Shown: positions 1-39,264, counted from the first letter of the stretch. The stretch is 39,264 nt of DNA from a virus (IMGVR_UViG_3300048889_000043:1-39264), one strand, 5' to 3'. Numbers and translations: made by a program. Notes: a model not told the origin generated them from the letters alone.

Positions 1-582
1 AAAAGCAGTCCAAAAGTTTTCCATTCTGTTAAGTGCTTCACGCTTAACATCTTCCACATCCTTTCCCATACACTCGGCGCTATACTCCAAAAACTGCTTA
101 AGCTTCACCGCATCTTTAGCATTCAAGTGTAGCGTCTCAGAATCAAATTCTAGGCACTTTACAGGCTCATAGTTCGATTTAGCGTCATTATCCGGATCAT
201 CCCCAGTCTCAAGCGCAAAAAGCTTTAGAATAGCGTATTTATAAGCATATGAAACAGCTTTCCCTGGCCCTTTATCCGACGAGTCTACCCCGTATCCCGT
301 AAAGTTCACTTTCAGCTGTTCTGTTGGCTCGTCTGCATTCACCACAAACACGGCTAGATTAACTACAGTTCTATTGGATTCCTGTGATAGCGCCTCGATC
401 GTAGGGATAATCATCACTCCATGCTTTACTAGTAGCGGATGTATCGCTGAAGTCACTTGATCGTGGCTCACAAAACGGTACTGTCCGTTTACGGTTTTTT
501 CTCCCTTTTGAATGTAATCCAAGTCTTCCATTATCGCAAGAAGTCTCTGGTAAACATTCTTTTTTTGTAACTGTATATCCAT
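1..582 (-). CDS. ERF-family ssDNA-annealing protein, 3' end runs off the window (absent from ORF track)
   Basis: Read manually: GGAG-N4-ATG at 582, MDIQLQKKNVYQRLLAIMEDLDYIQKG...FVSHDQV...GYGVDSSDKGPGKAVSYAYKYAILKLFALETGDDPD, typical ERF motifs; frame open to base 1. Confidence 0.9.
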   Translation of the reverse strand, partial: MDIQLQKKNVYQRLLAIMEDLDYIQKGEKTVNGQYRFVSHDQVTSAIHPLLVKHGVMIIPTIEALSQESNRTVVNLAVFVVNADEPTEQLKVNFTGYGVDSSDKGPGKAVSYAYKYAILKLFALETGDDPDNDAKSNYEPVKCLEFDSETLHLNAKDAVKLKQFLEYSAECMGKDVEDVKREALNRMENFWTAF

Positions 583-739
583 AATACTCCAACGTTAATT
601 TATATTTATTTATTTCAGCTAATAATATTTTTTGAAGTTCTTTTTGACTTTTTTTATACGAATTATAACCTTTTTGGTACTGTAGCAATCGCTCTCTATT
701 CTTCAAATAATATTGCTTATGATATTCTTTTTTATTCAA
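371..739 (-). CDS. Hypothetical basic protein; 3' part overlaps ERF in another frame
   Basis: N-terminus KEYHKQYYLKNRERLL is a common phage basic helix; start overlaps the nuclease stop. Confidence 0.45.
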   Translation of the reverse strand: MNKKEYHKQYYLKNRERLLQYQKGYNSYKKSQKELQKILLAEINKYKLTLEYYGYTVTKKECLPETSCDNGRLGLHSKGRKNRKRTVPFCEPRSSDFSDTSATSKAWSDDYPYDRGAITGIQ

Positions 740-1295
740 TTTGCTTTTCCTTCTTTTTATGAAAAAACTTATAACATGTTAACGCACACTCAAAGTAAAA
801 AAAATCTTCCGCTAAGTCTTCAAGCTTGATAAATTTCTCTTTTGCTTTACCACCATCTTTTTGCAAGTACAATAAATAAGCTCCGCATATGATCACTTCA
901 TTTTCGAACAGCATATTGTAATAAGCACACATCTGTAAGTAATGAACCTTATTATATGCCGCGCTAGTCTTGATGTCGCATAAATAGTACTTGCCATCAT
1001 TATGTACAAAAGTTAAGTCGATTTGTCCAGTATATCCATGCTCGTGTTCTACATATCTTTTTTCAACGATGTCGCACTTTGTAATGTTTTCTTTTGCCCA
1101 ATCATTATAACTCTTGATGTAACCTTTATATTCCTCTTGGATCATGCTGTCTGGAATCCAGGCACCTTTTGCAAGCCCTGCGCAAATTGAATGCACTTCT
1201 GTACCTCTTTTTGCTGCTGATTCAAGACGATCTTTTGGAATATAGTCAAATCCTGAGAAAGGCTTTAGAACTTCAGTAACCCTTGGATAGTCCAT
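732..1295 (-). CDS. PD-(D/E)XK exonuclease (phage Cas4/YqaJ-like), partner of ERF
   Basis: PRVTEVL, RGTEVH, VEKR, GQIDL, CDIKTS, QMCAY motifs; adjacent to ERF. Confidence 0.85.
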   Translation of the reverse strand: MDYPRVTEVLKPFSGFDYIPKDRLESAAKRGTEVHSICAGLAKGAWIPDSMIQEEYKGYIKSYNDWAKENITKCDIVEKRYVEHEHGYTGQIDLTFVHNDGKYYLCDIKTSAAYNKVHYLQMCAYYNMLFENEVIICGAYLLYLQKDGGKAKEKFIKLEDLAEDFFYFECALTCYKFFHKKKEKQIE

Positions 1296-1381
1296 TTAGT
1301 CTCTTTTTAAAATTTGAATTTACAAGTCAAGGAATACTGGCTATGTTGAATTTTGTCAAGAATCAACAAGGAAATATTTTT

Positions 1382-1609
1382 ATGGTGAAGGTAAAAAAAC
1401 TCAAAAATGACACTTGCATATCATTGAGAATGGAGAAAGCAGAATGGCAAGAGATTCAACAAATTGCAGCGTTAGAATCTCATCACACGCACAGCTGCAT
1501 AACCGGACAGGATTTAATTCGTGATGCAATTCATTATGTTTACTCTGATAATGAACGACTTAGAGAATGTTTTCGTCGCAGCAGGAACGTTTGCAAGCGA
1601 GTGTTTTAG
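1382..1609 (+). CDS. Small DNA-binding regulator (ribbon-helix-helix-like)
   Basis: ISLRMEKAEWQEIQQIA...QDLIRDAI pattern; ATG 1382 preferred over track start 1283; divergent from exonuclease. Confidence 0.5.
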   Translation: MVKVKKLKNDTCISLRMEKAEWQEIQQIAALESHHTHSCITGQDLIRDAIHYVYSDNERLRECFRRSRNVCKRVF

Positions 1610-1618
1610 AAAAAAAGA

Positions 1619-1687
1619 TTGCGATCAATCATGCAAAATTGTAGCTTATCGAAATTAAGGAAGCACTCGGGGGAGAACTTCCTTAAT
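1619..1687 (+). promoter_or_regulatory. Candidate sigma70-type promoter followed by a 10-bp leader hairpin
   Basis: TTGCGA(1619)-N17-TAGCTT(1642); perfect IR ATTAAGGAAG 1654-1663 / CTTCCTTAAT 1678-1687. Confidence 0.45.
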
Positions 1688-1767
1688 GGATCTCAAGAAA
1701 CTGTCATTTCTCGAGTTTAGGCAATGAATCGCAAGTCTAGCTTATCAGAAGTGGCAATTTAATCCAA

Positions 1768-2106
1768 ATGGGTTTTATGCATTTCGATCGCAAGTCAAAA
1801 TTATTTATCGATCTTAATGACGATGTCCTAGAGCAATTGAAAAAAACTTTTCCTCTAGTTGACGTCGATCTTGAGCTTAAGAAAATGACTATTTGGCTTC
1901 TCACAGGAAAAGGTAAAGCGTATAAAGGCACTGTTGGCTTTGCTATGAATTGGCTAAAGAAAGCAGCTCCAAATCAAATTACTATTGCCGAAGAACTTGA
2001 TCTTCTTGAGTCTGATTCTCCCCTTAGCAATGCCTTGAAAGACTACTCTAAGGAACTATGGAAAGACAAGGAAGATATTTTCCAATTCAACACAATCAAG
2101 CACTAA
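1768..2106 (+). CDS. Replisome-organizer C-terminal-domain-like protein
   Basis: FPLVDVDLELKKMTIWL...FAMNWLKKA resembles C-termini of phage replication initiators; directly upstream of helicase. Confidence 0.5.
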   Translation: MGFMHFDRKSKLFIDLNDDVLEQLKKTFPLVDVDLELKKMTIWLLTGKGKAYKGTVGFAMNWLKKAAPNQITIAEELDLLESDSPLSNALKDYSKELWKDKEDIFQFNTIKH

Positions 2107-37423: not shown

Positions 37424-37466
37424 AAAATATTAGAGAGTCTACAGTGGGAATTTTAGGAGTAATATT

Positions 37467-38348
37467 ATGAGCCAGTCCGGAACAATTATAAACGATTCGA
37501 GCATTCCTGTTGACGTACCTACTTCATTTGTCACAGGTTCAGGAACAGCAATCCCAGCAGCGCACACTATTAACGTTTTAGGTGCCGGGAACGCGACCAC
37601 ATCAGCAGCAGGAAATACAATAACTATTACTGCATCAGGAGGCGTTACAAGCGTTTCTGGAACTACAAATCAGGTTGCCGTAGCTAATGGAACAACAACC
37701 GCAGTAGTCTCGCTAGTTGGGCCTTACACTCCTGCAACATATACAGCACATGGAGTTCTAATCGGTGAAGGAACATCCAGCATTGCAGCGCTAGCAGCAG
37801 GTACGGCAGGACAAGTATTACAATCAGGCGGTGCTTCTGCCGATCCTTCTTATTCTACTGCAACTTATCCTTCAACAGCGGGCACAAGCGGCAATGTTCT
37901 CACCTCCAATGGAACTAATTTTGTGTCGTCTCCAGTGGCCGCGTCAACTTCTTATGCTGTGAATATGATAACAGCATCAACGCCAGCTCCAGCAGACAAC
38001 ACAACATATTTTATGCCTAATGCAAGCGTTTGGAGTGCTATTACAGCGGCAGCAACAAGGATATTTATTCCTCGAAGCGGAACCCTGTCGTCAGTATACG
38101 GAGCTATTAGTATCACAGGAACATTAGCATCAAGTGAAAATGTGACTATAAATGTCAGACTTAACAACACAACTGACACAGCTATAACGACTACATCACA
38201 ATGGACTGCTACACTAAACACATTTTCAAATAACGGATTGAGTATAGCTGTAACAGCAGGAGATTATATATCTTTTACAGCTGTTACGCCTGCTTGGGCA
38301 ACTAATCCAACAAACGTAATATTTAATGCAAGTGCATTTATTAGTTAA
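37467..38348 (+). CDS. Tail fibre protein (MSQSG N-terminus)
   Basis: GTAGQVLQSGG, GTSGNVLTSNG fibre repeats. Confidence 0.7.
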   Translation: MSQSGTIINDSSIPVDVPTSFVTGSGTAIPAAHTINVLGAGNATTSAAGNTITITASGGVTSVSGTTNQVAVANGTTTAVVSLVGPYTPATYTAHGVLIGEGTSSIAALAAGTAGQVLQSGGASADPSYSTATYPSTAGTSGNVLTSNGTNFVSSPVAASTSYAVNMITASTPAPADNTTYFMPNASVWSAITAAATRIFIPRSGTLSSVYGAISITGTLASSENVTINVRLNNTTDTAITTTSQWTATLNTFSNNGLSIAVTAGDYISFTAVTPAWATNPTNVIFNASAFIS

Positions 38349-38362
38349 AAAAAAGGAACATC

Positions 38363-38506
38363 ATGCCACTTATCAAAGGTAAATCAAAGGAAACAGTCAG
38401 CTCAAACATTCGAACTGAAGTAGCCGCTGGAAAAAATCAAAAACAAGCCGTTGCCATTGCTCTTAACACAGCACGTAATTCTGGCGCGAAGAAGAGTAAA
38501 AAATGA
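38363..38506 (+). CDS. 47-aa basic phage protein (absent from ORF track)
   Basis: [42 protein letters not shown], a common small phage family pattern. Confidence 0.7.
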
Positions 38507-38568
38507 TTGGAATATTCTTCCATGTCCTTTTAGTCCTCACACTAATTTTCCTTATATGGAGGTTGCTT

Positions 38569-39228
38569 ATGTGTAAAGATGAAATGAGAAAATGTCCATG
38601 CTGCTGTGAACAAGGTCCTCAAGGGGTTCCTGGTTTGCAAGGTCCTCAAGGCATCCAGGGAGTTCCGGGTGCTCAAGGCTCTATGGGCCCACAAGGCCTG
38701 CAAGGCCCCCAGGGTATGCAAGGCCCTGCTGGTAAAGATTGCGATTGCCCTGATCAACACAGACCATATTTAAACCTGTATTCAATGCTAGATCAAACGC
38801 TAGATGCTAATGGTGGAGCAAATGATGTCATAAAATTTGAGCAAATTAACGCTTTTACCGCTCCTGATTTTGACTTCTCAGCTGCTTCAACTACAGGCCA
38901 AGTTATCGTTTTGACTGCTGGTACTTATAGCATTCAAACCCATTGTGACGGTCGTCTTGCAGCTCCGTTCCCTGCTCCGGTTCCTTCATGGGGTATTGGT
39001 CTTTATAAAAATGGGGTTATTGTCAATGGAAGTCAGGTCGCTGGATTCTCTCAATCCCCAGACGATGACGCACTATCATTAACCGCACAAGTTGTTATCG
39101 ATGTGGCAGCCAATGATACTTTTATGGTTAAAAATATCGCAAAGGGTGGAGTGTTCCTAAAAGCTAATCATCCAGAGCTTGTAGTTTTGGATGTAAGCGC
39201 ATCACTTATTTTTGTAAAAATTAGCTAA
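38569..39228 (+). CDS. Collagen-like protein with BclA-C/C1q-like C-terminal domain
   Basis: 14 GXY triplets flanked by CPCCC and CDCP; GGAGG RBS before ATG 38569 (alternative start 38503 adds a TM helix). Confidence 0.8.
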
Positions 39229-39233
39229 AGATT

Positions 39234-39264
39234 ATAGGGGGCATCATCACCCCCTATTTATTAT
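39234..39264 (+). terminator. Terminator hairpin at end of late operon
   Basis: ATAGGGGG-CATCATCA-CCCCCTAT then TTATTAT. Confidence 0.6.

Follow-up and report, generated by a model that had tools for sequence, protein, structure and literature searches.

A near-complete tailed phage genome from soil metagenomes and its probable association with environmental Chlamydiota

Chlamydiamicrovirus, the small, tail-less, lytic single-stranded DNA phage of chlamydiae, has a genome of about 4.5 kb, and phage-like particles were reportedly seen in Neochlamydia and in bivalve chlamydiae in older electron-microscope work. Tailed phages of endosymbionts with eukaryote-directed cargo are known as WO of Wolbachia and APSE of Hamiltonella, and neither is known to carry an EUO-type developmental regulator. 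Here we describe IMGVR_UViG_3300048889_000043:1-39264, a linear virus record of 39,264 nucleotides (the window, by which we mean the whole stretch of DNA analysed), which is rated 99 % complete and is a near-complete genome of a tailed double-stranded DNA phage. A chlamydial host is in our judgement very probable, and with less assurance, though still in preference to the alternatives, we take the window to infect environmental Chlamydiota and to persist there as a circular, plasmid-like prophage; the host of this exact genome we infer, mainly through its relatives, rather than observe. With WO and APSE it would share the character of a tailed endosymbiont phage carrying eukaryote-directed cargo, in other hosts.

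The text of PMC5010888 that deals with chlamydial phages names only Chlamydiamicrovirus, gives no source for the spacers of Protochlamydia and mentions a single putative terminase gene, which lies in an island; the relevant part of PMC10880633 states that no phage is known for Waddlia, the available part of PMC11338181 has nothing on chlamydial phages, and unclassified viruses have been predicted to infect Chlamydiales (PMC12644861). Our searches of the open-access literature brought up no account of tailed phages of chlamydiae, of dif-integrating chlamydial prophages or of a phage-borne EUO, and an earlier assignment is possible. With Chlamydiamicrovirus and the gokushoviruses (Microviridae) the window would share its host phylum and the need to reach an obligately intracellular bacterium (PMC5010888), but its 39-kb double-stranded genome with terminase, portal and tail genes, and its temperate relatives, place it outside that group. 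Among podoviruses with a P22-like portal and an N4-gp56-type capsid, Bacillus phages Pony, Pascal and Palmer and Paenibacillus phage API480 resemble it in these two protein families and in their size of about 40 kb, but the window has no detected endolysin and different cargo, and its best identities to GenBank phages are only 26-33 % for the capsid and at most 43 % for the terminase large subunit (TerL). [quoted passage not shown]

Relatives of the window and their chlamydial links

By capsid, 117 IMG/VR loci are related to the window (the best 80 at 70-94 % identity), 649 related proteins were found, and nearly identical contigs come from soil metagenomes; two of these contigs may be the source of the record, and no RNA data set is among those listed as containing it. 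A quick capsid tree parts the nearer relatives into an own clade, which includes the window and is 87-94 % identical to it, and a sister clade at about 70-77 % identity; together these form one group (SH 99). The clade is large and uncultured. An earlier note, made from the sequence alone, had proposed a tailed double-stranded DNA phage of a Chlamydiae-like host. The first part is confirmed by TerL, a P22-like portal, a major capsid and tail and fibre genes, and the second is supported, a chlamydial host being likely because same-clade genomes carry EUO-like genes, the sister clade carries chlamydial dif, and one relative is a dif-flanked prophage in a chlamydial contig.

This integrated relative lies in contig G289:C1 (137 kb), where an apparently whole 35.7-kb prophage (41988-77726; L114-L116) is flanked by two 28-nucleotide dif-like repeats at 41988 and 77699, the left of which fits chlamydial dif. 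Eight window genes are matched in conserved order, and a profile search of the prophage found no integrase. The flanks are chlamydial, with PyrG and RibAB 90 and 78 % identical to those of genome G048 as against 45-54 % to two controls, and G048 has colinear flanks (65-76 % nucleotide identity) with a single dif and no phage gene between them, which is an empty site. The G289 prophage shows the pattern of LME-1, one dif intact and one modified; LME-1 differs in its host and in its XerL rather than XerCD dif system. The sister clade and the G289 prophage appear from their sequences to have the IMEX traits of a dif mimic, no integrase and integration at chromosomal dif; the window, in contrast to LME-1, encodes its own recombinase and lacks a host dif mimic. 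TerL of the G289 prophage is split into two pieces (68289-69089 and 72560-73309), and toxin-antitoxin-like genes are aboard. On G175:C4, a 223-kb chromosome contig, capsid (49 % identity) and TerL fragments surround a homologue of the window's U-box gene at 208626-212223 (L112, L113); the pair of small-membrane-protein and U-box genes in this remnant is intact and may be retained phage-delivered cargo.

The dif motif that we used agrees with the published chlamydial predictions (PMC3025954); of 151 Chlamydiota genomes, 124 contain it, usually a single time, and three contain the reversed control. Within two mismatches it is present in nine of 20 sister-clade records (exact in three) and in none of seven own-clade records. 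In five sister genomes, first picked after a relaxed motif match, the site lies between genes on the upstream side of the terminase genes, and xer is absent; as these five had been selected by motif, we take 9/20 as the unbiased count for the sister clade. Among 2.9 million viral contigs the exact motif is present in about 220, of which 120 (from 35 of 64 parts) are listed; 43 of these 120 loci (42 of the 80 with long flanks) match window genes, a count that includes TerL-only matches, which are not family-specific. Two matches each were seen in the Chlamydiota genomes G038, G043, G048, G052, G058, G064, G070, G072, G076, G092, G137, G146 and G153, where the second may mark a plasmid, a phage or another dif-using element.

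An EUO-like gene with tandem helix-turn-helix motifs occurs in seven of the 16 other own-clade genomes and in all five sister genomes examined; in the seven, whose capsids are 87-94 % identical to that of the window, the gene is intact. All 60 scored Chlamydiota have a match to the own-clade copy of G730, at 40-52 % identity and as a single copy in 58; a match was otherwise found in one of 121 Pseudomonadota (on a phage contig), in none of 121 Acidobacteriota and in none of 50,697 GenBank phage records; a sequence search of the PDB gave one weak match. We infer that this gene is EUO from its length (about 140-185 amino acids), tandem helix-turn-helix structure, single copy, restriction to Chlamydiota and an apparent likeness to the EUO sequence. 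Six of the seven own-clade copies form one group (SH 97) among the chromosomal copies in a poorly resolved tree, which fits capture from a host, though not this direction of transfer alone. EUO is a signature protein of the Chlamydiales, for which lengths are given (PMC1403754), and is present in 99 % of chlamydiae (PMC8242063); overexpression of host EUO represses late genes and stops the conversion of reticulate bodies (RB) to elementary bodies (EB) (PMC10653925). The phage copies (L171:18739-19140 and those in G707, G709, G712, G714, G717, G726, G733, G735, G736, G740 and G743) are more diverse than the chromosomal ones.

The window features that bear on the host are as follows.

4859-5251, plus strand: small protein with a C-terminal hydrophobic segment, by hydropathy; no family match
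5304-6314, plus strand: glycine-zipper hairpin and U-box/RING-fold protein, predicted to be a ubiquitin-ligase effector acting on a eukaryotic host
9364-9549, minus strand: small membrane/coiled-coil protein of the KDFHGRLC family, holin-like according to automatic cluster names

The KDFHGRLC family, with 340 homologues and 302 viral loci (atlas score 0.95), is mainly a phage family. It is present in eight of 401 Chlamydiota (six at E≤2e-11) and in one of 301 Pseudomonadota, on a phage contig, so that its occurrence in chlamydial assemblies, suggested in the earlier note, is confirmed. Copies lie amid housekeeping genes in G380:C3 and G102:C5, and an own-clade copy is 67 % identical to that of G380 over 87 residues; at least seven of 78 KDFHGRLC-bearing viral contigs have the exact dif motif, counted among the 120 listed. 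Tandem copies are seen in both phage and chromosomal settings (G399:C145:29110-29581 and G380:C3:89263-89690).

The U-box cargo recognized earlier is likewise real, with a sequence score below the Pfam cut-off (17.3 against 21.4 bits) and a predicted fold that matches. Four aligned relatives comprise two that pass the cut-off, one just under it and one without a U-box match. Residues 162-271 of the AlphaFold model (pLDDT 89) resemble RING/U-box folds, with Z scores of 9.4-9.6, one match having Z 9.4 over 82 residues with a root-mean-square deviation of 2.6, and LubX is among the matches; a Foldseek search with the model gave nothing at E≤0.001. Only one cysteine is conserved; a U-box E3 ligase would have a U-box/RING fold without a zinc-ligand set. 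Members of the family number 265 at E≤1e-10, and of ten clusters looked up one is named for an organism, a Parachlamydiaceae metagenome-assembled genome. In a search of Chlamydiota only, homologues were found in three of 200, among them the chromosomal phage remnant, whereas a word-based search with the protein returned only itself and a feature-based atlas search no usable match. RING/U-box families are known in Parachlamydiaceae (PMC4209131).

A small open reading frame similar to that at 4859-5251 flanks the U-box gene in G712, G175 and G063, and the 5304-6314 model has a glycine-rich helical hairpin at residues 64-116, with one segment above the hydropathy threshold. Inc proteins have a bilobed hydrophobic domain of 40-60 residues, are secreted by the type III system and reside in the inclusion membrane. 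The Inc-like cargo proposed earlier stands as far as the hydrophobic segment and the hairpin go, but a profile search with both proteins found no Inc family match and the label is not established. The proposed lack of a recognizable endolysin holds at the level of profiles: no peptidoglycan hydrolase or endolysin turned up in 328 proteins, comprising the window's 70 open reading frames and two sets of family representatives (116 and 142) taken from relatives. The chlamydial cell wall is reduced, and the missing endolysin would fit such a wall, although a lysin of an unknown kind is possible.

Recombinase, symmetric site and mode of persistence

Persistence of the window would involve the following features.

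6865-7578, minus strand: ParB-N-like protein (block 6865-7915, PHROG 12305, E 1e-28; Pfam ParB_N below the cut-off)
7900-8796, minus strand: XerD-like tyrosine recombinase (TIGR02225, E 3e-72, under the equivalog cut-off; catalytic motifs intact)
11665-12084, plus strand: probable terminase small subunit (terS), from its position and a presumed motif, without a family match
12083-12110, plus strand: palindromic Xer-type site (core ATATAA-N6-TTATAT, 12088-12105) located at the stop of terS; the phage's own recombinase is predicted to act on it
17468-18466, minus strand: antisense replication-initiator-like gene (PHROG 270, Pfam HTH_36)

The recombinase gene is found in 16 of 17 own-clade genomes, and the window's enzyme lies on the longest branch of its clade. 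Its best scores are 184 bits against 61 Chlamydiota and 151 bits against 61 Pseudomonadota, so the best-hit check suggested earlier leans to Chlamydiota, but the identities overlap (29-38 %) and leave it indecisive. The open reading frame 11665-12084 is conserved in all 17 own-clade genomes, and its product contains what we presume to be a motif of the terminase small subunit type. The palindromic core was recognized by eye in all 16 Xer-encoding own-clade genomes and is absent from the one without a recombinase gene; at the terS stop it was found in 31 distinct metagenome loci out of 43, as opposed to a rate of 0.8 % in the background (63 of 7475 windows). In one long contig, treated below as a chimera, a 352-nucleotide end repeat spans the site, and recombination between the end copies could therefore circularize injected DNA. 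In the whole own-clade genome G001:C68:1-42073 (L085-L087) the 352-nucleotide exact end repeat starts inside terS and may mark the physical ends, and G723 too terminates at a G/C-rich motif after the palindromic site.

Within the initiator-like gene, three internal repeats at 30-33-nucleotide spacing (17828-17913) form a candidate origin. Most own-clade genomes hold a different antisense open reading frame of about 300-370 amino acids in this slot between terL and portal, and non-homologous replication-initiator-like genes are swapped at this one position. ParB-like genes occur in 11 of 17 own-clade genomes and ParA in some relatives. Among 55 terS-anchored metagenome loci no integrated own-clade copy was found: all contigs are of 41 kb or less save two of more than 100 kb, of which one is a triple repeat at 40.3-kb spacing and the other has only phage genes within 10 kb. 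In a plasmid collection, protein searches with the initiator and with the KDFHGRLC and U-box proteins found nothing, and the DNA search gave three chance matches.

We consider it likely that the window's clade persists as a circular, plasmid-like prophage, since it combines the lack of a chlamydial dif with its own recombinase and site, an initiator-like gene, ParB-like genes and no integrated copy. The P1 plasmid prophage with its Cre/loxP system would be alike should the recombinase of the phage use a symmetric site for circularizing and monomerizing the genome; P1 differs in being a large myovirus with ParAB, and the window's enzyme is XerD-like with a predicted activity. In the life cycle that we propose, elementary bodies outside the cell would be the form to which virions attach, and would take them along into the eukaryote. 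For relatives that lack a recombinase gene we envisage integration at the host dif by host XerCD, whereas the window's clade would have replaced this route by its own recombinase and symmetric site, which may circularize the injected DNA, resolve dimers (as in Cre/loxP) and keep the prophage monomeric. An EUO homologue, which the window lacks, might allow the clade members that have one to keep the host a dividing reticulate body; the bacterium could export the U-box protein, whose target would be the ubiquitin system of the eukaryote, and exit would proceed through the holin-like protein without a classical endolysin.

Competing readings of host and lifestyle

Several observations weigh against a plasmid-like phage of Chlamydiota. 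The window itself has no EUO-like gene, no ParA and no chlamydial dif (no match at three mismatches, with the best profile score within the shuffle range), and we found neither an integrated own-clade copy in a chlamydial chromosome nor any other link between the two. With 32 % identity in the capsid and 27 % in the portal, the G289 relative stands far from the window, and its position in the capsid tree depends on long branches. Nor is the dif motif confined to chlamydiae: its left arm GTCTGATAA is present in five non-chlamydial predicted difs in the table of PMC3025954; the core of the own-clade site resembles the dif cores of Rickettsia and Wolbachia, and in a quick tree of two phyla the phage XerD-like enzymes form a clade of their own, outside the chlamydial one. 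Of 33 loci that hold the chromosomal EUO-like gene, only 15 have recJ within 1.5 kb of it, and no family library names the EUO-like protein. An exact capsid-motif scan of 185,579 genomes gave four matches (Acidobacteriaceae, Aquaspirillum, Chthonomonas and Chlamydiota), only one of them a Chlamydiota fragment; another member of the capsid cluster bears a Kaiserbacteria label, and distant capsid matches occur also in the Aquaspirillum bin, of the Pseudomonadota. The capsid profile matched eight of 400 Chlamydiota genomes, one of them marginally, and the genome searches with the capsid profile and the U-box protein were of Chlamydiota alone; one Chlamydiota genome was left unscored in the capsid, EUO-like and U-box scans, and the searches by phylum covered Chlamydiota, Pseudomonadota and Acidobacteriota.

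These bin labels, together with the origin of the window in soil metagenomes, would point to a free-living soil bacterium such as a member of the Acidobacteriota, a host that we regard as highly improbable. The Acidobacteriaceae match (L081), an 88 %-identical capsid on a 242-kb contig, was rejected as a prophage: a whole phage genome is spliced abruptly into the contig, which we treat as a chimera because the join falls inside a host gene, with a 352-nucleotide exact end repeat, no attachment (att) site and a sharp G+C step from about 0.37 to 0.58. The Aquaspirillum and Chthonomonas capsids (76 %) both lie on short contigs, the former phage-like throughout and the latter judged by the capsid match alone; these two and the Kaiserbacteria-labelled member we treat as mis-binned phage contigs. 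The missing endolysin match and the lack of an EUO-like gene in the 121 Acidobacteriota also argue against such a host. A shift of the clade to a different intracellular bacterium living in the same amoebae as chlamydiae (Babelota, Rickettsiales, Legionellales or an Amoebophilus-like organism), with ancestral chlamydial genes kept, is also unlikely, if less so. The window's own lack of an EUO-like gene and of chlamydial dif, the long branch of its recombinase, the Rickettsiales-like site core and the occurrence of U-box proteins in Legionella, as in the LubX match, all suit such a move, but an intact EUO-like gene is kept by seven of 16 genomes of the same clade and the window's cargo has chlamydial chromosomal homologues. 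Legionellales, named as an alternative in the earlier note, are further weakened because their dif arms resemble no known Xer motif, and they use a different dif/XerL system (PMC9765430). Doubtful, yet more serious than either change of host, is the possibility that the host is chlamydial and the phage has no plasmid state, the clade either integrating through its own recombinase at the palindromic site, with or without host Xer, or being purely lytic. All the evidence for a chlamydial host applies to it equally; a chlamydia-like XerD arm is kept at some own-clade sites (G707, G709), the window lacks ParA, and integrated copies are generally rare in bins. We nevertheless prefer the plasmid-like prophage in view of the 55 terS-anchored loci without an integrated copy, the ParB-like genes of 11 of 17 genomes, ParA in some, and the initiator with its internal repeats.

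The window may, at about even chances, represent a widespread undescribed family of tailed, endolysin-free phages of Chlamydiota, with lysogeny through host XerCD at the chlamydial dif or as plasmids with their own Xer enzyme, a captured EUO as master regulator by which the host's development is steered, and ubiquitin-ligase effectors moved between chlamydiae. Such a family would offer a route of gene transfer, and possibly a genetic tool, in a phylum thought to have only microviruses; if common, it would give chlamydial defence systems the targets they have been missing, and effectors a path between obligately intracellular bacteria. A phage-borne EUO homologue would make phage control of the EB/RB switch directly testable, and integration of an element at dif suggests how DNA might be inserted site-specifically into amoeba-associated chlamydiae, for which genetic tools are lacking. 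Tailed phages of endosymbionts, integration at dif and eukaryote-directed cargo are each known elsewhere; new would be the host phylum and the EUO cargo.

Genome organization and other observations

The remaining features of the window are these.

1-582, minus strand: ERF single-stranded DNA-annealing protein (PHROG 155, E 1e-32), truncated at the contig start (position 1)
732-1295, minus strand: exonuclease (PHROG 298, E 9e-20)
1283-4657, plus strand: conserved replication/recombination block, with a small putative regulator
2058-2921, plus strand: DnaB-like helicase (PHROG/Pfam)
3727-4266 and 4175-4657, plus strand: two RusA-like resolvases (PHROG/Pfam)
7562-7915, minus strand: helix-turn-helix protein (Pfam HTH_38, under the cut-off)
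14448-15149, plus strand: RNA ligase (PHROG/Pfam)
15058-15351, plus strand: DUF3310 protein (PHROG/Pfam)
15901-15975, plus strand: tRNA-Asp(GTC) (ARAGORN; Rfam 54.5 bits)
16011-17342, plus strand: TerL (PHROG 2, E 5e-23)
18680-24678, plus strand: head module, with small head genes between portal and scaffold
18680-20659, plus strand: P22-like portal (Pfam, E 1e-61)
22972-23715, plus strand: probable scaffold
23734-24678, plus strand: major capsid, for which sources name the N4-gp56 family
24697-34749, plus strand: short-tail module (weak PHROG/Pfam tail matches; gene order as in the G289 prophage; roles judged from position)
25830-26840 and 27454-29799, plus strand: tail-tube-like proteins
30279-34749, plus strand: probable ejection proteins, from position only
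34822-39228, plus strand: tail fibre/receptor-binding genes (PHROG 11393 and 5073; Pfam Collagen)

The TerL, portal and HK97-type capsid that define Caudoviricetes are recognized through matches to PHROG 2, PF16510 and PHROG 1357/PF25209, respectively. The window is likely to be of the podovirus type, with a short tail, to judge from the type of its portal and from a PHROG/Pfam profile search in which no window protein matched a tape-measure or sheath family; a single weak match to a 'major tail protein' (PHROG, E 0.0014) was recorded. The last gene of the fibre module encodes a collagen-repeat protein with an N-terminal hydrophobic segment. Most genes of the 1283-4657 block occur in 23-34 of 34 DnaB-anchored viral loci. 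The ERF proteins of relatives extend a few residues past the window copy, and joining the window ends into a circle does not restore the ERF tail. A seemingly independent contig of 39,261 nucleotides has its ends almost where the window has them, and may be the source of the record.

Immediately after the portal gene, at 20692-20877, is a very histidine-rich open reading frame of 61 amino acids without a match in 192 viral loci. At 9546-11496 a TTGGTTGTTAAG-like motif recurs upstream of several small early minus-strand genes and is a candidate promoter or regulatory repeat. In L029-L033, L073, L075 and L078-L080 the capsid matches are longer by 220-370 bases, as introns in that gene would make them. 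Own-clade genomes encode RtcB, RNA ligases and several tRNAs (L085:1910-3163 and 3640-4611; G001:C68 5862-6334), which suggests RNA repair against a host defence that cuts tRNA. Cargo in further relatives (L476:18924-19697, L483:5116-5673, L467:14818-15672 and L488:8188-9213) includes a DXD glycosyltransferase, an outer-membrane beta-barrel, Band-7 proteins and, in a sister genome, a U-box protein that scores above the cut-off.

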